A stretch of DNA of 20,151 bases from a virus (lineage: Duplodnaviria > Heunggongvirae > Uroviricota > Caudoviricetes): IMG/VR virus record IMGVR_UViG_640753025_000004, positions 1-20,151 of that record, one strand, 5' to 3'. A program made the position numbers and the translations under genes. Under the pieces are notes generated by a model, which saw only the letters and a list, made by a program, of their open reading frames with translations, did no database searches and had not been told where the DNA came from. Positions 1-19,058 of this stretch are shown piece after piece (within the stretch, counting starts at the first letter, position 1; every line of letters starts with the position of its first letter).

Positions 1-393
1 TCATATTACTGGATAATCATCATCATCCTTCCCTATCCGATTGATAACGAATGTCACTACCCCGACAACTGTAACATCATCCAGGGCCTCACCTTCCAAC
101 GCTTCACCGTCTCGTGTAATAAATGCCCGGCCCATAATTTTTGCAAAATCAGTGCCGCCGCCGTATTGAATTAAAACGGTATCTCCTTGCTTTGGTTTTA
201 CGAAGCAATCCACTACGGCATAGCCGGTTTCTGTTTGTACTATCCGAGTATTGGGGCCGGTACCGCAGAGTGAATCAACGGTCAGACGCCGTTCAACATA
301 GTCAGCAGCTGGCGACGGAAATCCCACGTTATAGCCCTCCGTTTGGGTTGTATAACTGGAACGTGAGCTCATCGCCTTCCTGCGTTGAGACAT
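1..393 (-). CDS. UmuD-like S24-family (LexA/UmuD-type) SOS protein; gene runs to the window edge with stop at 1-3
   Basis: Translation contains GFPSPAADYVE, identical to the segment around the UmuD Cys24-Gly25 cleavage site, at the same distance from the N-terminus. C-terminal DDVTVVGVVTFVINRI resembles the UmuD C-terminus (DTLDVFGVVIHVVK) and a GDTVLI block matches GDLLIV. The canonical SG-x-SM serine motif is not evident (region reads TETGYAV). Alternative start at Met8 (about 372) has a better SD (AGGAAGG). Confidence 0.65.
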   Translation of the reverse strand: MSQRRKAMSSRSSYTTQTEGYNVGFPSPAADYVERRLTVDSLCGTGPNTRIVQTETGYAVVDCFVKPKQGDTVLIQYGGGTDFAKIMGRAFITRDGEALEGEALDDVTVVGVVTFVINRIGKDDDDYPVI

Positions 394-402
394 CCCGGAA
401 TG

Positions 403-561
403 TCAGTGCTCTATCCACTGGTTAGCCTGGCGCGGTGACCATATCCAGTTAACTTTTGCGAGTTCCCGGATAAAACCGGACGTTGTCACGGTGCGACGGC
501 CATTAGGCTCAATGACAATTGCCTGACGCCAGGCTATTTCGATATCTGAGTTTCGCGGCAT
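403..561 (-). CDS. small hypothetical protein (52 aa), first gene of the SOS-box operon
   Basis: ATG at 561 preceded by a strong SD (GGGAGGTGA, about 6 nt spacing). The track ORF 403-606 extends upstream but the internal ATG with SD is the likelier start. Stop lies 9 nt before the UmuD-like start. No recognisable family. Confidence 0.4.
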   Translation of the reverse strand: MPRNSDIEIAWRQAIVIEPNGRRTVTTSGFIRELAKVNWIWSPRQANQWIEH

Positions 562-579
562 AACTTCACCTCCCGAAAA

Positions 580-599
580 TACTGTTTTTATATACAGTA
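580..599 (-). promoter_or_regulatory. LexA binding site (SOS box)
   Basis: TACTGTTTTTATATACAGTA fits the E. coli SOS box consensus TACTGT-(AT)4-ACAGTA with both CTGT/ACAG half-sites perfect. It lies about 18 nt upstream of the 561 start codon and contains a TATATA -10-like element. Confidence 0.65.
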
Positions 600-771
600 G
601 ATTCATTAAGAGATCTGATCAATACAGGTTCCAGCTATCAATCAGGAACACTGAGGAGGAAACCAGTCACCTTTTAGCCTCTGATATTGGTTTCACTTAG
701 TGATTATGTTGTCTATGTGCCAACTATGAACTATCTTTTCTCAAAACCTGCTACTGCAAAATGGATATAAG

Positions 772-897
772 ATGTCACAGACGGACTTGCTGATTGTTGT
801 TTTTACTCTGGGCATTTTAGCCTTTGGCTATTCCATATGGTTCATTTCGAACAGAATACTTTGCTCTATATTTCATAGACTTACAAAGAATATATGA
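772..897 (+). CDS. candidate small hydrophobic peptide (41 aa, single predicted TM helix)
   Basis: ORF MSQTDLLIVVFTLGILAFGYSIWFISNRILCSIFHRLTKNI, too short for the track. A 14-aa upstream ORF (726-770) stops 1 nt before its ATG, and a 48-aa ORF (894-1040) starts in an ATGA overlap with its stop. A hairpin terminator follows at 1104-1137. Weak SD; AT-rich region. Confidence 0.25.
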   Translation: MSQTDLLIVVFTLGILAFGYSIWFISNRILCSIFHRLTKNI

Positions 898-1103
898 ATT
901 GGGATGGTATAGACCCAAATTCATGGTCATTGCCCCTCGACGTCGGAAGGTACTTACAGATCATCTTCGCTCTTAACCTATCACATCGGCACCTACTCCA
1001 TGATGTAACAGCTCAGACCAGAAATATCTGGAAGCTTTAGGCATATTCTTGGAAGATAGACGAGCGCAAAGACGCACACAGCAATGATGTTATGTAGTAT
1101 TTT

Positions 1104-1137
1104 CCCCTTGAGTGTGCCTGCTCAAGGGGGTTTTTAT
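1104..1137 (+). terminator. Rho-independent terminator-like hairpin
   Basis: CCCCTTGAG-TGTGCCTG-CTCAAGGGG stem-loop followed by GTTTTTAT. Confidence 0.5.
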
Positions 1138-1140
1138 CGC

Positions 1141-1216
1141 CGTATTGTACTGGCAAATATTTGTAAATAGTCTTCACCCCCACGCCTGTCACATCGGCCA
1201 CACGCGACTGGACAGG
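1141..1216 (-). pseudogene. remnant of serine DNA-invertase C-terminal HTH (copy A)
   Basis: Minus-strand translation reads QSRVADVTGVGVKTIYKYLP, matching the Hin/Gin/Pin C-terminal DNA-binding helix region. No upstream catalytic domain. About 75 percent DNA identity over about 55 bp to copy B at 1745-1800. Confidence 0.45.
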
Positions 1217-1219
1217 CGG

Positions 1220-1642
1220 TTAGTCCGGTATGTTTCTCGCGCTACTACTGCTTACGTTAACGTCTGGTAATGATCTAGCGGCGCGACGTAAAGCGGCGTT
1301 GAAAGCAATTATAGTGACCGGCCGGCATTGGTACTTCACACGGTTAGAATGGCTCTGAAATAAAAAAACATCTTCTGGATAGCGTTCTCTTCTACGAGCA
1401 ATGATCCCCTCCACTGGAGGGGTTGATTTAACACGTAGCTCCTTCAGGTGACCCTGTTTTCGTATCAGTATCAAGTCACCATCAATATCATCATATCGAA
1501 TACTCAGCAGCCTTCCAGCGCTTAAACCCGTGTGAAAAATTAACGCCCACAAGTCAGCCCATGTATCTGAGATGGAAACAAGATTGCTGTTAATAGTTAA
1601 AAATTGCTCAAAACTTATTGTTTTCTTACCGTTCACGAACAA
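1220..1642 (-). pseudogene. internal fragment of a tyrosine recombinase (phage-integrase/XerC-like)
   Basis: The segment TGLSAGRLLSIRYDDIDGDLILIRKQG and the following region align in pattern with the first half of the tyrosine-recombinase catalytic domain (first conserved Arg). The C-terminal H-x-x-R and Tyr region and the N-terminal domain are absent. ORF begins with TTG and contains no internal Met. Confidence 0.5.
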
Positions 1643-1719
1643 ACCAAACTGTTTTCAAAGCTGAATGAATTGATTAAGCCAAACGTAACATATCAGGAAA
1701 AGTAGTGAAATCTTTGCCT

Positions 1720-1932
1720 TCAAGTCGCCGGGAGGTACTTGTAGATTGTTTTCACGTCCACGCCTGTCACATCAGCCACCTGCTGCCGGGTAGCGCCGTT
1801 CTCCAGCATTCTGCGGCACCGCTCCACCACTTCTTCAGTCATTATCCGGCGGCGGCCGCCGACTCTCTCCTGCTCCATCGCTGCGGACCGACTCGGATGC
1901 ATTCGGCAAATTCTAGGCCGTGATTTTTCCAA
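1720..1932 (-). pseudogene. C-terminal remnant of a serine DNA invertase (Pin/Gin/Hin family), copy B
   Basis: GGRRRIMTEEVVERCRRMLENGATRQQVADVTGVDVKTIYKYLP parallels the Gin/Hin C-terminal HTH domain (GGRPPKLT...LYKKHP). The resolvase catalytic domain is missing; the ORF starts with TTG and overlaps the 3' end of the upstream 266-aa gene. Confidence 0.65.
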
Positions 1933-2713
1933 TCCTCTCCATCAGATATGCCAGGATGACATCCAGTGTGCTGGTCCCATATGCATATTTGCCGGGGAAA
2001 ACCAAACATTCTGACAAAACGGATGTTAACGGAGACACTGAACCATTGCCTGCTCCGCCAATACTCATTTTTTGAGACGGGCTATACGCTGGGATTGTAT
2101 AGCCCGTCACTTGTCGGCTGGTCACTGCAGACTGATCTGACCGCTGGTATGCAATTGCATAGGATCCAGCAGCCTTGTTAGAGCACATAACTACAGCGCA
2201 GAATAAAGATTGCCCTATATTGTTAGGAGTAAATGCCAGATCGGCCTCGATCCCTCCATTCAGAAAAATCGGGAATGAACCTGCTGACGTTGTACGAATG
2301 CCGACGCCATGAGGTGTGCTTTCCTGGGTTGCGATAACCGCTCTGTCCTGTGGCGTAGCCGGAAGCGCCCCACCTGGCAGCTGATAGATGAATGCAAAAG
2401 TATTGATGTTTGCGTCCATAACCACCGCCGTATCACCAGCCATGCCGGATGCACCGGAGAAATTAAGCCCCTGCAAAACAGAACCATTCAGCTTTGTGGA
2501 TGGCTCGAGGGTCTCCAGTGACTTGAAAAGTCCGCCATCTAATCGGTTAGAGATAGCTACTACTTTTGCACCAGACCCCATTTTTAGAAACTCTGTCTTC
2601 ACTGGTGTCCATACTGATGGGGATAGTTCTGAGATCGCTTTCTCTGCCGCTGTTTGTGAGTACACAGGGAGTAAGGGGTTATTCAGTCCAGTTAGTGTGT
2701 AAATCAGTCTCAT
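1913..2713 (-). CDS. hypothetical protein co-transcribed downstream of the tailspike (possible tail-associated or fibre-assembly protein)
   Basis: 266-aa ORF with an SD (GAGGA) upstream of ATG at 2713, 10 nt after the tailspike stop. No recognisable motif. Confidence 0.35.
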   Translation of the reverse strand: MRLIYTLTGLNNPLLPVYSQTAAEKAISELSPSVWTPVKTEFLKMGSGAKVVAISNRLDGGLFKSLETLEPSTKLNGSVLQGLNFSGASGMAGDTAVVMDANINTFAFIYQLPGGALPATPQDRAVIATQESTPHGVGIRTTSAGSFPIFLNGGIEADLAFTPNNIGQSLFCAVVMCSNKAAGSYAIAYQRSDQSAVTSRQVTGYTIPAYSPSQKMSIGGAGNGSVSPLTSVLSECLVFPGKYAYGTSTLDVILAYLMERIGKITA

Positions 2714-2722
2714 TTTTTATCC

Positions 2723-4786
2723 TCAGAAAACGTTAATACGAAAAGCGGGGAGCCAGTCGTAAAGAGTCACGGATGTGTCATACACCCATATGATTCCAGC
2801 GGAAGATCGAACACACCCTCTTGCACCAAGAGTCCGCCCGGAAGGTTTTACAGATGCGCCGCTCTGAAGTGGGTTTTCTGCTGTCGCATAGGAAACGCGC
2901 CCAAAACGTCCAGAGGGGGCGGTCGCCAGGTTAATCAGCACGCCCTTGCCGTCCGAGCTGATCGCGATGCTCGATATAGCAGGTGGAGCACCAGTCTCAT
3001 CCGTGTAGCTAAAGCCGTAATTGGCCAGACCGGAGGTGTTGATCGTAGTCGTGTCCAGCACCAGGTTCGTATACGCTGGGACATTGATTTGTATCTGCGT
3101 GGGTGAGTTCCACACGAAACTGGTCGGAACCATCCCTGACCAGCCGCTCGTAAACCACTCCTGGAGAAGCGCTCTCGCCACAGCTGCTCCGCGCCGGTTC
3201 TGGCCCGCACACGTCAAGTGCAGACCGTCTGAAATAAAATCGTACTGGTACAAACTATTGACCAGCCTGAATTGCTCTTTTCCGTGCAATCGCGTCGACG
3301 CCAGTCGCGCGTACTGGCCTGTAAATGCACCATGCCCGTCATTGACATACCCCAGCTGGGTAATGGCGATAATCGGCGGTTCGTTTTGACCCGTTCTTGC
3401 GATGATGTCGCTGGTGATTTGTCTCTGGTACTGCCTCATCCGTGATTCATACATTCCTTCTCGTAATCCTGACCAGTCCTCGTCGGACTCTCCCTGCATC
3501 CAGTCAACGCAGAGAACAATCGGCAGCCAGCCGCGTGCTTTACAGGCCGTTACGCAGTCTTCGATTGAATCGAGCAGATACTGATATACCTGGTTACCCC
3601 GTTTCTGGTACTCGTAAGCCTGACCAGACTGCGCACATACGATTGATAGCGTGCGCGGCATGATTCCGGTAGCTGCAGCCATATCGCGAATGAAGGTGTT
3701 CGCGAGGCCGCTTGCGGCCGTTTCTTTATCTGTCCCACTTACTGCCTCAACCAGTGGCACCAGAGTAGTGCTGCGTGTCCCTGTACGCCTAACCCCGCCG
3801 CTGAGCATGAAAGCGTTATCAGGATATATCGGCGTTGCTGCGACAATGGTTTGATCGGCGTCAGGACAATATCCTCGAGCGTTGGATTGCCCAGCAGTCA
3901 CAAAGATAAAACATACAGGCACTGTCTCTGAGTAGGGGTACACAGTAGACCCTGACAAATGAAGTCCATACTCAGGGAGCTGGTTGGCATCATCGTCGCC
4001 ACCACCACCGCCATTTCCGTTATTAACAGCTACCAGGCCACCGTCTGAGTAAATCCAGTGCTTCCCACCAACCGTATAAGCTTCAACGATCTGGTTTGTG
4101 GTTGAATCAACCGTCATCCGCCACACTTTTTCACCGCCAATAAACTGCGGTATAGAACCCTCCCGGCCCAGCGCATAGAGTTCGGATTCTTGTTGGGTTA
4201 AAAGTTCGTAATATTTTCCGTCAGGACCGATTTGAATTAATCTGCCGCTTGTATTTAAAAATGGAGCCACGCGGGAAGTCTCCGGATCATATGCTGCCAG
4301 GGTCACGCTGTCTGGCGATACCTGGTATGCGTAGTCGTCACGAACCATCCGCCGTCCGGTTGGCTGCAGCGTTCCAGCGAGGTTGATATACTCATCGGCC
4401 AGAGAGCTTCCGTCCTGACTGCGGACATAGGTTGTTGAACCTGCCGGAATATTCGCAATATCCGCCTGCGCCGCCGCCAGCGTCATGTACTGCCGGCTGA
4501 GAGGGATCAGGTTTTGGCGGGCTTCATCAATAACAGCGTCGGTAGCAGCTGCCATTTTTTTAGTAGCCCCAATTATCGTATCCTGGGCGTTACCAAAACG
4601 ATCTATAAAAGTATCGCTTTCGCTGTTCAGGAAATCATCGTACGCCAGGGCGTTATCATTCAGATCCTTCATGCTATTTGAAGGTCTTGGATTGCCGGTA
4701 TTATATCTTTTGTCCATACCTGTTCCTGTCTTCATCTTTTCAATGAAGCAATTAAGATTGACGCCCCGCCCCTTCAGGGCTAACAT
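2723..4786 (-). CDS. tailspike-like protein with a SASA/SGNH-type carbohydrate O-acetylesterase domain
   Basis: Long ORF with a central FIFVTAGQSNARGY motif, the GQSN(M)xG nucleophile motif of sialate-O-acetylesterase/DUF303-type esterases (as in prophage NanS-p and esterase tailspikes). A Gly-rich linker precedes it and a C-terminal beta-rich region follows. The true start is probably an internal ATG (about 4735 or 4717, the latter with an AGGA SD). Confidence 0.6.
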   Translation of the reverse strand: MLALKGRGVNLNCFIEKMKTGTGMDKRYNTGNPRPSNSMKDLNDNALAYDDFLNSESDTFIDRFGNAQDTIIGATKKMAAATDAVIDEARQNLIPLSRQYMTLAAAQADIANIPAGSTTYVRSQDGSSLADEYINLAGTLQPTGRRMVRDDYAYQVSPDSVTLAAYDPETSRVAPFLNTSGRLIQIGPDGKYYELLTQQESELYALGREGSIPQFIGGEKVWRMTVDSTTNQIVEAYTVGGKHWIYSDGGLVAVNNGNGGGGGDDDANQLPEYGLHLSGSTVYPYSETVPVCFIFVTAGQSNARGYCPDADQTIVAATPIYPDNAFMLSGGVRRTGTRSTTLVPLVEAVSGTDKETAASGLANTFIRDMAAATGIMPRTLSIVCAQSGQAYEYQKRGNQVYQYLLDSIEDCVTACKARGWLPIVLCVDWMQGESDEDWSGLREGMYESRMRQYQRQITSDIIARTGQNEPPIIAITQLGYVNDGHGAFTGQYARLASTRLHGKEQFRLVNSLYQYDFISDGLHLTCAGQNRRGAAVARALLQEWFTSGWSGMVPTSFVWNSPTQIQINVPAYTNLVLDTTTINTSGLANYGFSYTDETGAPPAISSIAISSDGKGVLINLATAPSGRFGRVSYATAENPLQSGASVKPSGRTLGARGCVRSSAGIIWVYDTSVTLYDWLPAFRINVF
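4757..4785 (+). promoter_or_regulatory. candidate sigma70 promoter for the moron operon
   Basis: TTGACG-N17-TAACAT just upstream of the HTH gene, in the divergent intergenic region. Confidence 0.3.
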
Positions 4787-4794
4787 CGCCTTAC

Positions 4795-5082
4795 GTGTTT
4801 AAACGGTTAAATAAGAGAATGATTTTAATAAATAAATACACCCCTCCAACGCAGGAAGATTTAGCCAGACTGAAATCCGCACTAAATTACTCCGGAAACC
4901 AAATGGCAGGGCTCGCAGGTGTAGCCAGCGATAGCCAATGGCGGAAATACACTGGCGGAGAGAGCCCCAGGGTAATGTCAAGACACATACTGTTTTATAT
5001 TGCAGCTCAGCTTGTTCTGTCTGATGAGCAACTTAACAATGTAATAAATAAAATGCGCGATATTGGCGCGGAGATAAAATAA
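4795..5082 (+). CDS. small HTH (Cro/XRE-like) protein, first gene of the moron
   Basis: The segment TQEDLARLKSALNYSGNQMAGLAGVASDSQWRKYTGGE has an HTH-like pattern. Track start is GTG; first ATG is at 4819. Stop overlaps the acyltransferase start (TAATG). AT-rich. Confidence 0.45.
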   Translation: MFKRLNKRMILINKYTPPTQEDLARLKSALNYSGNQMAGLAGVASDSQWRKYTGGESPRVMSRHILFYIAAQLVLSDEQLNNVINKMRDIGAEIK

Positions 5083-6173
5083 TGCTTGGCCTAATAAGGT
5101 TTTTTTTGGCATCGTGCGTCATTGCTTTTCACTTAACGGCTCGCATACCTGCACTTGGCAACTTTGCAGTGAATTGCTTCTATGTTATTAGTGGTTTTTT
5201 AATAACATACATTTTGCATGAAACATACAAGTTCAACTTCTCTATGTTTTGGAAAAATAGAATACTGAGGTTATTCCCGGCATATATATTTTTTCTCGTC
5301 ATGGGCTTTCTTATTATAAAATTAATTCCATCCGCAAAGGAATTCCACTCAAACTGGACAGGCAATTTCTTACCTGGAGATTTATTAGGAAACCTCTTAA
5401 TCTTCCCCTGGGCTTTCCTTTCTGATAATGCTGTAGCAAATCCATTCGGTGCCTTTTCATCCATTTATCACTTTGCTATTGATGGTAATAGATTCAGAAT
5501 AGTCACATCATCATGGTCAGTGGGTGTTGAGATAACATGTTATTTTTTATTGTGGCTTTTCATAGCCCGAAATAAATTTACAGCCATTACGTCGATTCTG
5601 CTTTCACTGCTTTATCATGCTTACGTATATGTAGTACACCATTCTTTTGATATGGCGTATTTCCCATTCCTTGCTGCAACACTTCCTTTTAGCATGGGTT
5701 CTCTGGGTTATTTTGCCCATAGAAAGTTCAAAGCTATGTATCTTTCTCCACACAAAGCTTTTTTAATAACATTTATTTGCATCGGGATTTTTATTACCAA
5801 TTGGCATTTATATACAATTAATCCATTAGGTCAGTACAACATAATACTTTACTACACCAATAATGTAATAGCATTGTTTACAACCCTGGTATTATTAAAA
5901 ATAAAGACAAACATACATCTTGAGAAAATACTCAAGTGGTTTGGTGACCTGGCCTATCCAATTTTTCTTTGTCAATATTTTGGTGGATTTCTAGCATGGC
6001 TTGCTATTGGTGGTGAAAATCGTGGCTTATCCATCTTTTTATTAGGCTACCCAATATCAATTGCACTTGGGATCGTTTGTGTAATATTAATAGACAAGCC
6101 ACTAATTAAAATTAGAGCAAAAATAAGGGCGGACGCTCAAAGCAAAAATAATCAGGAAAACTCTTCAAGGTAA
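5082..6173 (+). CDS. acyltransferase-3 family integral membrane O-acyltransferase (OafA/Oac-like)
   Basis: Multi-TM protein with family-typical N-terminal motifs (FHLTAR, FYVISGFLITY, WKNRILRLFPAY). Markedly AT-rich relative to flanking phage genes and on the opposite strand. Confidence 0.8.
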   Translation: MLGLIRFFLASCVIAFHLTARIPALGNFAVNCFYVISGFLITYILHETYKFNFSMFWKNRILRLFPAYIFFLVMGFLIIKLIPSAKEFHSNWTGNFLPGDLLGNLLIFPWAFLSDNAVANPFGAFSSIYHFAIDGNRFRIVTSSWSVGVEITCYFLLWLFIARNKFTAITSILLSLLYHAYVYVVHHSFDMAYFPFLAATLPFSMGSLGYFAHRKFKAMYLSPHKAFLITFICIGIFITNWHLYTINPLGQYNIILYYTNNVIALFTTLVLLKIKTNIHLEKILKWFGDLAYPIFLCQYFGGFLAWLAIGGENRGLSIFLLGYPISIALGIVCVILIDKPLIKIRAKIRADAQSKNNQENSSR

Positions 6174-18462: not shown

Positions 18463-19058
18463 CTTTTGCGCTGCGGCGATATCAGCGTGGTTATGTACCA
18501 GGTAATCCGTGTGTTGGTGTCGATAAGTTTCCTAAACCCCAGCGCGACCGCTACATAACTGATGAAGAGTACATAGCTATCTTCACTCATGCGACACCTG
18601 CAGTTAAAGCCGCGATGGAAATTGCGTATCTTTGCGCTGCAAGGGTATCTGATGTTCTTAAAATGAACTGGAATCAGATTCTTGATAAAGGAATTTTCAT
18701 ACAGCAAGGTAAAACTGGTATTAAACAGATCAAAGCCTGGACTGAGCGTCTTAGTGCGGCTGTGGATATTTGCAGGGAATGGGGACAGGATGGCCCTGTT
18801 ATCAGGACAATGTATGGTGAGCGTTATTCATACAAGGGATTTAATGAAGCATGGAGAAAAGCGAGAAACGCGGCTTCTGAAGAACTTGGTAGGCCACTTG
18901 ATTGCACCTTCCATGATCTAAAGGCTAAAGGGATCTCAGACTATGAAGGATCTGGCAGGGATAAGCAAAAATTCAGTGGTCATAAGACAGAATCACAGGT
19001 ACTTGTTTACGACAGGAAAGTTAAAATCAGCCCAACGTTGAACAAGAAAATGAGATGA
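18456..19058 (+). pseudogene. 5'-truncated tyrosine integrase (lambda Int family), catalytic domain only
   Basis: Catalytic-domain pattern present (ARVSDVLKMNW, HDLKAKG, GHKTESQVLVYDR with the terminal Tyr). The roughly 170 N-terminal residues are missing; the ORF begins with GTG and the first in-frame ATG is about 54 codons in. Confidence 0.8.

Follow-up and report, generated by a model that had tools for sequence, protein, structure and literature searches.

A short tyrosine-recombinase-like gene, probably under selection, among serine-invertase scars at the right end of a defective Escherichia coli prophage

In this study, we examined a locus of a defective Escherichia coli prophage at which pieces of a serine and of a tyrosine recombinase lie side by side. 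The analysed DNA, referred to as the window, is a stretch of 20,151 nucleotides (positions 1 to 20,151 of the IMG/VR virus record IMGVR_UViG_640753025_000004), and all features of the locus, which occupies positions 1140-1932, are on its minus strand. A sequence-only reading had described the locus as a graveyard of recombinases, in which two 3' remnants of a serine invertase flank a tyrosine-recombinase fragment. This description holds for the serine-invertase pieces but fails for the tyrosine-recombinase piece. In the interpretation that we consider probable, the former are the scars of a dead invertase, while the latter, an open reading frame (ORF) of 140 codons (ORF140; 1220..1642, minus strand), is a gene with a catalytically dead tyrosine-recombinase fold that is kept by selection in the mosaic right end of the prophage. 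The assignment of ORF140 is based on a match to the profile of the phage protein family phrog_19751 and on its conservation.

ORF140, its family and its neighbours

ORF140 ends with a TAA stop codon at 1222-1220 and starts either with a TTG at 1642 (140 aa) or, more likely, with a GTG at 1636 (138 aa); a GTG-AAC start is common to the Klebsiella relatives, and ATG is found in more distant ones. In a comparison with PHROGs, it matched phrog_19751, a family to which no function is assigned, with an E value of 5.3e-46 and with residues 7-137 aligned to profile positions 5-135 of 140, while the match to the general integrase profile phrog_1 was weaker (2.4e-8). Neither ORF140 nor the family profile gave a meaningful sequence match to solved structures; only a fold comparison gave a result, according to which the catalytic-domain fold of tyrosine recombinases (PF00589) is present in ORF140.

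A search of 5.8 billion proteins revealed 161 homologues from Klebsiella, Raoultella and E. coli, nearly all of them 136-144 aa long, and the three largest 90% clusters hold 1405, 699 and 515 sequences (more than 2,600 together). In a scan of loci sampled at one genome per species (loci carry L numbers below), the family gene was found at 21 loci of Klebsiella, Raoultella, Superficieibacter, Kluyvera, Yokenella, Pseudocitrobacter, Scandinavium, Franconibacter and Enterobacter pulveris, at identities down to 39%. In 20 of these 21 loci, all of them from other species, the frame is intact and 132-151 aa long or, in two cases, 175 aa. The pairwise ratio of non-synonymous to synonymous substitution rates (dN/dS) in the family, taken from pairs whose synonymous sites are not saturated, ranges from 0.10 to 0.22. 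The blocks SDTWxDLW, RRR, FQSHSNRVK, VTxIAFNxAL and SSxSAR are invariant, and family members end just after the last of these. Because of the full-length match to phrog_19751, the constant length, the low dN/dS and the fact that the gene is equally short beside an intact invertase, ORF140 is not a product of local decay. Judged from its sequence conservation, it is an intact gene of a conserved, selected short family. The proposal that the 140-aa ORF is a decayed tyrosine-recombinase fragment is therefore not borne out and the ORF is better described as a complete protein of a family of its own, whereas the duplicated segments on either side of it remain invertase-derived.

The ancestry of the family could be traced with a family profile search of 1.84 billion cluster representatives, which gave 155 hits with the short forms scoring best. 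Below these, with E values of 1e-16 to 1e-5, were proteins of 183-192 aa that align over their first ~135 residues. These relatives carry PF00589 (1e-17 to 1e-23) and are single-domain tyrosine recombinases that keep the R..K..HxxR..H..Y template in the form of ALRxSD (Arg-I), the hairpin K, SxHSxRKT, LNHSS and xRYIG; in many phages and plasmids of Firmicutes, relatives of similar size carry the annotation of a site-specific recombinase. Compared with the full template, ORF140 has a Ser at Arg-I, lacks the catalytic Lys and has SSSSAR in place of the HxxR box (H to S), and it ends four residues after this motif, so that His-III and the Tyr nucleophile do not exist. As the catalytic residues including the Tyr are missing, the protein is predicted to be unable to cut or rejoin DNA on its own. 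We infer that ORF140 derives from a single-domain tyrosine recombinase of ~185 aa and is without the last third of the catalytic domain.

We also considered whether ORF140 could be one part of a split gene, whose C-terminus lies downstream or across the prophage junction and is restored on excision. This was rejected, as the TAA lies inside a conserved unit and no C-terminal remnant was found: a tblastn search with the C-termini of full-length relatives detected nothing in the window or at any locus, except in the 175-aa forms L024 and L025. The distance of 1.2 kb between ORF140 and the prophage end in the window also counts against this idea. The two 175-aa forms (L024, 3881-4498, and L025, 3971-4498, from Franconibacter helveticus and Enterobacter pulveris) keep a degenerate C-terminal segment (SSQSARKT...NHHDAAYTRAWLG), and from its sequence this form appears to stand midway between the complete recombinase and the shortened family. 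The closest full-length relative, a protein of 187 aa with PF00589, was found at L045 (5001-5564), away from tail-fibre genes; its gene and that of a 470-aa integrase are ~440 bp apart, separated by an 82-aa gene, at the edge of an element integrated into a 5.7-Mb chromosome.

ORF140 lies where members of phrog_19751 typically lie in enterobacterial prophages, at the fibre/invertase end and adjacent to the host junction or to cargo genes. The family gene is always close to the right end of the prophage, and umuDC, DinI or a retron-type reverse transcriptase is a frequent neighbour. In four Klebsiella prophages beside a PBP5-type gene (L029, L030, L032 and L033), an intact 183-aa invertase is followed by a family member of 138 codons (ORF138). 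The order in L029-type loci is tailspike gene, opposite alternative tailspike gene, gix-like site, invertase, hairpin, ORF138 and host gene, and the 370-bp gap between invertase and ORF138 in all four contains a hairpin homologous to window 1150-1046. In K. pneumoniae CP040724 (L042), an intact 189-aa invertase ends 65 nt before ORF138, as compared with a gap of 78 nt in the window. Since the short ORF directly follows an intact invertase in these relatives, it is a native neighbour of the invertase gene and not debris. More than half of the distinct contexts have an invertase or its remnant on the same strand and no more than ~1 kb upstream, among them those of such distant members as L026 (40% identity) and L022 (45%). 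Among the contexts without a nearby invertase, the Kluyvera loci have the family gene after tail-fibre assembly genes and L034-L041 after acyltransferase or beta-helix genes. L042 was also considered as an intact counterpart of the fibre genes of the window; this was discarded, as the 266-aa ORFs of the two loci are unrelated and the architecture alone is shared.

A weak sigma-70-like motif (TTTCCT, 16 nt, CTTAAT; 1673..1700, minus strand) is located ~37 nt upstream of the GTG at 1636. It was found by eye in a block ~45 nt upstream of the start that is conserved across L009-L014, L029 and the window; in other clades the same position reads TTGCCT, N16, ATAATA. This motif could be the promoter of ORF140 itself.

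Invertase 3' ends and the former inversion module

A repeat search detected a direct repeat of 44 nt at window 1158-1201 and 1736-1779, with an identity of 84% (37/44), a spacing of 578 nt and a possible extension to ~50 nt (1152-1201 and 1730-1779). The two copies, A and B, have a local alignment score of 53, compared with 17 +/- 2.1 and a maximum of 26 in 1000 shuffles, and no further 44-mer across the 20-kb window reached 29/44. Both 44-nt copies encode the recognition helix of a Gin/Hin-type invertase. The two direct copies of an invertase helix-turn-helix (HTH) segment recognized earlier, with the peptides VADVTGVGVKTIYKYLP and VADVTGVDVKTIYKYLP, are thus real and more similar than the roughly 75 percent estimated at the time. 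Their origin from an invertase was also correctly recognized, in view of the Pfam HTH_7 match and the Hin and Gin alignments described below and of the full gene in close relatives. Furthermore, as had been stated, none of the ORFs at the locus has an ATG start, and no catalytic domain of the invertase is left in the window.

Copy B (1730-1779) is part of an invertase remnant of 54 codons plus stop (1720..1884, minus strand), which comprises the end of helix E and the HTH domain and is equivalent to Gin residues 130-181. It lies within a 70-aa ORF (1932-1720, minus strand), of which the last 54 codons are the invertase DNA-binding domain. This ORF matches Pfam HTH_7 (PF02796) at 1.9e-9, above the gathering score, and aligns with the Hin DNA-binding domain (E 1.3e-6) and with Gin residues 130-181; the remnant also aligns with aa 122-180 of the intact invertases. 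RefSeq annotates the piece at 1720..1884 as a pseudogene with a missing N-terminus. PF00239, the resolvase-type catalytic domain with the Ser nucleophile, gave no match in the remnant.

Copy A (1152..1201, minus strand) is an orphan invertase 3' end that starts at about codon 163 and gives, on its own, a weak match to HTH_7 positions 28-43 (E 0.06). It is followed by the native C-terminal tail of an A-type invertase (..PVQYGDKNP..) and a hairpin (together 1103..1151, minus strand), the counterpart of which follows the intact invertase genes of L004, L011 and L029. The tail after copy A thus reads PVQ(Y/C)GDK.., while copy B is followed by a different tail (AT*). The hairpin at 1103-1130 precedes a T-run on the plus strand and reads as an intrinsic terminator. 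Copy A begins 18 nt after the ORF140 stop codon and in the same frame. It had been pointed out that copy A follows the stop immediately and in frame; this is true of the window but not conserved, as L007 has a TAG five codons past the stop. We considered stop-codon readthrough from ORF140 into copy A, and with the frame relation not conserved it was treated as a coincidence. A third invertase 3' end, copy C (~941-1003, minus strand), is of the B-like KYLP type and decayed by a frameshift and a stop, reading ..GADVIG.. / ..KMICKYLPTS.. across the frameshift. Its alignment score is 29, compared with a maximum of 28 in 500 shuffles, and it is better preserved in L003, L005, L006 and L007.

The close relatives of the locus reveal what has been lost. 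L002, a lambdoid-type prophage of strain SCU-308, is 97.7% identical over window 1-1884 and continues beyond the position of 1884 into a full-length invertase of 189 codons, which itself has an internal stop. L004, an e14-like prophage at icd, has an intact 189-aa invertase that matches Mu Gin (PDB 3UJ3/4M6F) with an E value of 1e-71 over residues 1-182. Sites resembling gix, mostly of the form TTCGC...AAC.....GTTT...CGAA, are present 45-70 bp upstream of the intact invertase starts in L004, L010, L011, L029-L033 and L042, and relatives with an intact invertase have oppositely oriented fibre or tailspike genes alongside. These gix-like sites and inverted fibre genes are in agreement with the earlier suggestion that the locus was once a Gin/Pin-like tail-fibre inversion locus.

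The check for crossover sites that had been recommended was carried out. No convincing gix/hix-like site was found in the window, where a 26-bp pattern gave three matches with 2-3 mismatches (0.9 expected by chance), none of them near the fibre genes or the invertase remnant. There is no crossover site upstream of the fibre gene of the window, and no inverted repeats were found to flank the fibre genes at 1913-4786. The window lacks the first ~127 codons of the invertase, which normally hold the enhancer; no search was made for the enhancer sequence as such. With neither a convincing crossover site nor flanking inverted repeats, we rejected the idea of a residual inversion system in the window; a possible pseudo-gix site inside the 44-nt repeat proved by eye to be merely a poor half-site resemblance. 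The invertase of the window must be regarded from its sequence as non-functional, with the fibre genes fixed in one orientation.

The truncation of the invertase coincides with a mosaic junction at 1885..1912, located by blastn end points and by annotation of the whole prophage. Homology to the lambdoid-type right-end modules of L002, L003, L004 and L006 ends at window 1884-1886, which is 27 nt from the stop codon of ORF266, and from 1913 the window continues with the 3' end of ORF266, part of the fibre module of a baseplate-J/gp47-type phage remnant. Because homology ends at this point and ORF266 belongs to a different phage type, the truncation is a mosaic junction and not a simple internal deletion. 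At different loci, the invertase upstream of the family gene has independent truncation points, at aa 109, 111, 118, 122-128 or 146. From these different truncation points we conclude that erosion happened several times while the short ORF was kept.

Origin of the arrangement and the possible role of ORF140

According to the model that we favour, the right end (window 1-1886) is a mosaic module common to lambdoid-type prophages of Klebsiella and E. coli. In intact relatives, the module has, in this order, fibre or tailspike genes that can be inverted, a gix-like crossover site, a serine invertase of the Gin type, a family ORF of 138-144 codons and the prophage end. Recombination at the junction 1885/1886 would have removed the first ~127 codons of the invertase, the enhancer region and a crossover site, and this loss would have locked the fibre genes in one orientation. 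The orphan 3' ends A and C may be inherited scars of older unequal or illegitimate recombination, or of deletion, between the right-end units of related phages. ORF140 would be the sole piece still under selection; as an accessory gene of the prophage, it would be expressed from a promoter of its own and act by binding DNA or another recombinase without catalysis. Of these modes of action, binding of DNA without cutting is the most likely.

Several points weigh against this model. ORF140 itself has no match in Pfam (E <= 1), NCBIfam or PADLOC, its structural model is of moderate confidence (predicted local distance difference test score, pLDDT, 61.5), and literature searches with the accession, the PHROG number and inactive recombinases yielded no paper that mentions the family. 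The promoter-like motif is weak in the window and was missed by a consensus scan. In addition, it cannot be reconstructed from the sampled loci how and in which order copies A and C arose, and the polymorphism of occupied and empty loci described next, taken alone, fits a site-specific insertion equally well.

In ten E. coli genomes (L004 and nine others), a single hybrid copy takes the place of copy B, ORF140 and copy A of the window, so that occupied and empty loci differ by the presence or absence of 578 bp bounded by the repeat. This pattern fits an insertion that brought a replacement 3' end, but a deletion between the right-end units of two related phages, as might follow tandem lysogeny or unequal exchange, would fit it as well. 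In the first case, the 578-bp segment would be, or once have been, a small integrative cassette that inserted site-specifically into the 3' end of the invertase gene and supplied a replacement end (..KYLPAT*), so that the invertase stayed whole and its displaced original end, copy A, was left downstream, as in integration into tRNA genes. In favour of this idea, occupied and empty sites do occur in contexts that are homologous, and the two boundaries both fall within the 44-50-nt repeat; moreover, the sequence after copy A is the native tail of the invertase at empty sites, while that after copy B is of the element type. The segment encodes a recombinase-derived protein and the third orphan copy suggests repeated use of the site. 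However, for want of a Tyr nucleophile the protein encoded by the segment is unable to catalyse integration, and no flanking repeats around the family gene were found in any clade below 95% identity. The junction of ORF140 with copy A, with a start at invertase codon 161-164, is also present in a 76%-identity clade (L034-L037) without an upstream invertase, and the tight order of invertase and ORF exists without a downstream copy in L012, L014 and L042. Inherited scars are favoured because of these four observations. Near-isogenic pairs of occupied and empty loci were not found; the flanks are 90-94% identical, and as this difference of 6-10% gives no sign of recent mobility, it was likewise counted for inherited scars. 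Moreover, the boundaries within the repeat are trivially explained by the truncation point of copy A and the point at which the invertase alleles diverge. Of the features of a 3'-end-targeting cassette, att-like direct repeats and an empty site were found, while an active recombinase and recurrent insertions were not. We therefore regard a cassette as rather unlikely. The repeated insertion and deletion that had been proposed for the locus stands in so far as recombination left scars of invertase 3' ends, but not as ongoing site-specific insertion.

It has also to be considered that ORF140 might work together with the Gin-like inversion module or with some other recombinase, which we think improbable. 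It might bind at or near the crossover sites or the enhancer and so bias or silence inversion, or it might poison a full-length tyrosine recombinase through mixed complexes. The frequent presence of an invertase or remnant shortly upstream would be in line with this, and ORF140 keeps the DNA-contacting N-terminal two-thirds of the recombinase fold. Against this, many family members have no invertase nearby (the Kluyvera loci and L034-L041), the window keeps ORF140 although its invertase is dead, and both genes simply occupy the right end of prophages, so that the linkage may be positional. On this basis it is a doubtful proposition that the ORFs of 138-144 codons are a domesticated dead half-recombinase and, in temperate phages of enterobacteria, the standard companion of the Gin-like fibre switch, serving as an inversion modulator or as a decoy against the tyrosine recombinases of competing elements; if it were true, this would be a functional pairing of a serine and a tyrosine recombinase of a kind not described before.

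That the whole of 1140-1932 including the 140-aa ORF is non-functional recombinase debris, as first read, is extremely unlikely: the prophage is defective, its invertase and phage integrase are pseudogenes and ORF140 has no ATG, Pfam match or catalytic residues, but the view is already contradicted for ORF140 by the sequence conservation set out above, that is, by dN/dS and saturated synonymous sites, the intact frame in other species, the full-length phrog_19751 match, the same short form beside intact invertases and the size of the three largest clusters alone.

Prophage setting and comparison with known systems

According to the RefSeq annotation, the window represents one defective prophage of ~19 kb, bounded by tRNA-Ser/mtfA on one side and by a partial tRNA close to yodB on the other, and the integrase gene of this prophage (18480-19058) is a pseudogene. 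Window 900-2100 recurs with 100% identity in 13 complete E. coli genomes, strain HS among them, as does window 1-2800 in an E. coli HS-type record (L001). Genes for lysogeny, replication, lysis, sheath or tube are missing from the annotation of the window, and head genes abut baseplate genes. On the fibre side of the junction, ORF266 (2713-1913, minus strand) follows a fibre gene with a sialate-O-acetylesterase domain (4786-2723, minus strand; Pfam SASA and a PHROG tail-fibre match). An acyltransferase-family gene (5082-6173, plus strand) lies between the baseplate genes and this esterase-type fibre gene and is probably a moron for the modification of surface polysaccharides.

At the other side of the locus, a UmuD-like S24 peptidase gene (1-393, minus strand; phrog_3469, 7e-49) appears intact and is adjacent to an ORF related to polymerase V (403-606, minus strand) that is annotated as frameshifted; complete umuDC pairs are present at the equivalent position in L004 and L006. 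An unannotated, strongly hydrophobic ORF of 41 aa (MSQTDLLIVVFTLGILAFGYSIWFISNRILCSIFHRLTKNI; 772-897, plus strand) is conserved in relatives, at 100% in L002 and L004 and at 95% in K. pneumoniae L036. Judging by its sequence, it could be a small membrane protein or a toxin-like moron. The G+C-rich hairpin with a T-run at 1103-1130 (plus strand) is ~200 nt downstream of this ORF, and a transcript of the 41-aa ORF would run antisense to copy C. A search of window 1-3000 with Rfam revealed no structured RNA at E <= 1.

A retron-type reverse transcriptase gene (RVT_1) was found beside the module in three relatives, between the module and tail/fibre genes in L003 (4333-5817) and between the module and umuDC-like genes in L037 (5311-6798) and L043 (2089-3573); a gene of this type is absent from the window. 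In the Klebsiella locus L031 (1194-4645), a beta-lactamase gene with two flanking transposase genes of the IS6 family (insertion sequence; rve/DDE_Tnp_IS240) has taken the place of the invertase upstream of ORF138, and ORF138 and its upstream block are intact despite this replacement. The prophage end that bears the family gene appears to be a hot spot for cargo and defence genes. PADLOC identified no known defence system among ORF140 and its neighbours in the window.

The locus is mostly the outcome of ordinary prophage mosaicism and what is new here is modest, namely the recognition of a mis-annotated family of truncated pseudo-recombinases that is habitually found behind Gin-like invertases. 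The invertase scars reflect routine prophage erosion and matter mainly for annotation; they also illustrate how the right-end modules of temperate phages reshuffle and how a fibre switch becomes locked. ORF140 is labelled in databases as a site-specific integrase or as a hypothetical protein. Our data suggest that it is neither an integrase nor junk and that its family is a widespread, selected, non-catalytic recombinase derivative with thousands of copies in Klebsiella genomes.

The invertase remnant is the HTH_7 DNA-binding domain of the family that comprises Gin of Mu, Pin of e14, Cin of P1 and Hin of Salmonella. Over 182 residues, intact relatives at the locus show close to 60% identity with Gin and, as in Gin-type systems, have 26-bp gix-like sites just upstream of the invertase and inverted alternative fibre genes. 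Unlike these systems, the window has no catalytic domain, no enhancer region and neither of the two crossover sites, and so it cannot invert. The window also has two extra orphan invertase 3' ends downstream. To our knowledge, such orphan ends are no part of the classical invertase systems.

The arrangement of the locus resembles that of integrative elements of the tRNA-gene type, in that direct repeats of a gene 3' end bracket a recombinase-like gene and empty sites exist. It differs from them in having no active integrase, in the confinement of the repeats to one lineage (the clade above 95% identity) and in junctions that look inherited. With the small tyrosine recombinases of 183-192 aa (PF00589), which are known from phages of Streptococcus, Listeria and Clostridium and from plasmids of Bacillus and Enterococcus, ORF140 aligns over the first ~135 residues and shares the RRRxxYPxDxxLFQSHSNR block and the fold; unlike them, it is without the Lys, His-III and Tyr, has a Ser at Arg-I and falls below the Pfam threshold.

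For the action that we propose for ORF140, a precedent is MrpR (YopR), the master repressor in the Bacillus subtilis prophage SPbeta, which has a tyrosine-recombinase fold, has lost most catalytic residues and binds DNA (PMC10516654). The combination of core-binding and catalytic domains, a repeated operator and repression of lytic genes that characterizes MrpR was not found for ORF140. Both are prophage proteins with a tyrosine-recombinase fold that is without most catalytic residues, and if ORF140 is indeed a regulator or interference factor, it would join MrpR among the recombinase folds that have been recruited for DNA binding, and a systematic mis-annotation would be corrected.

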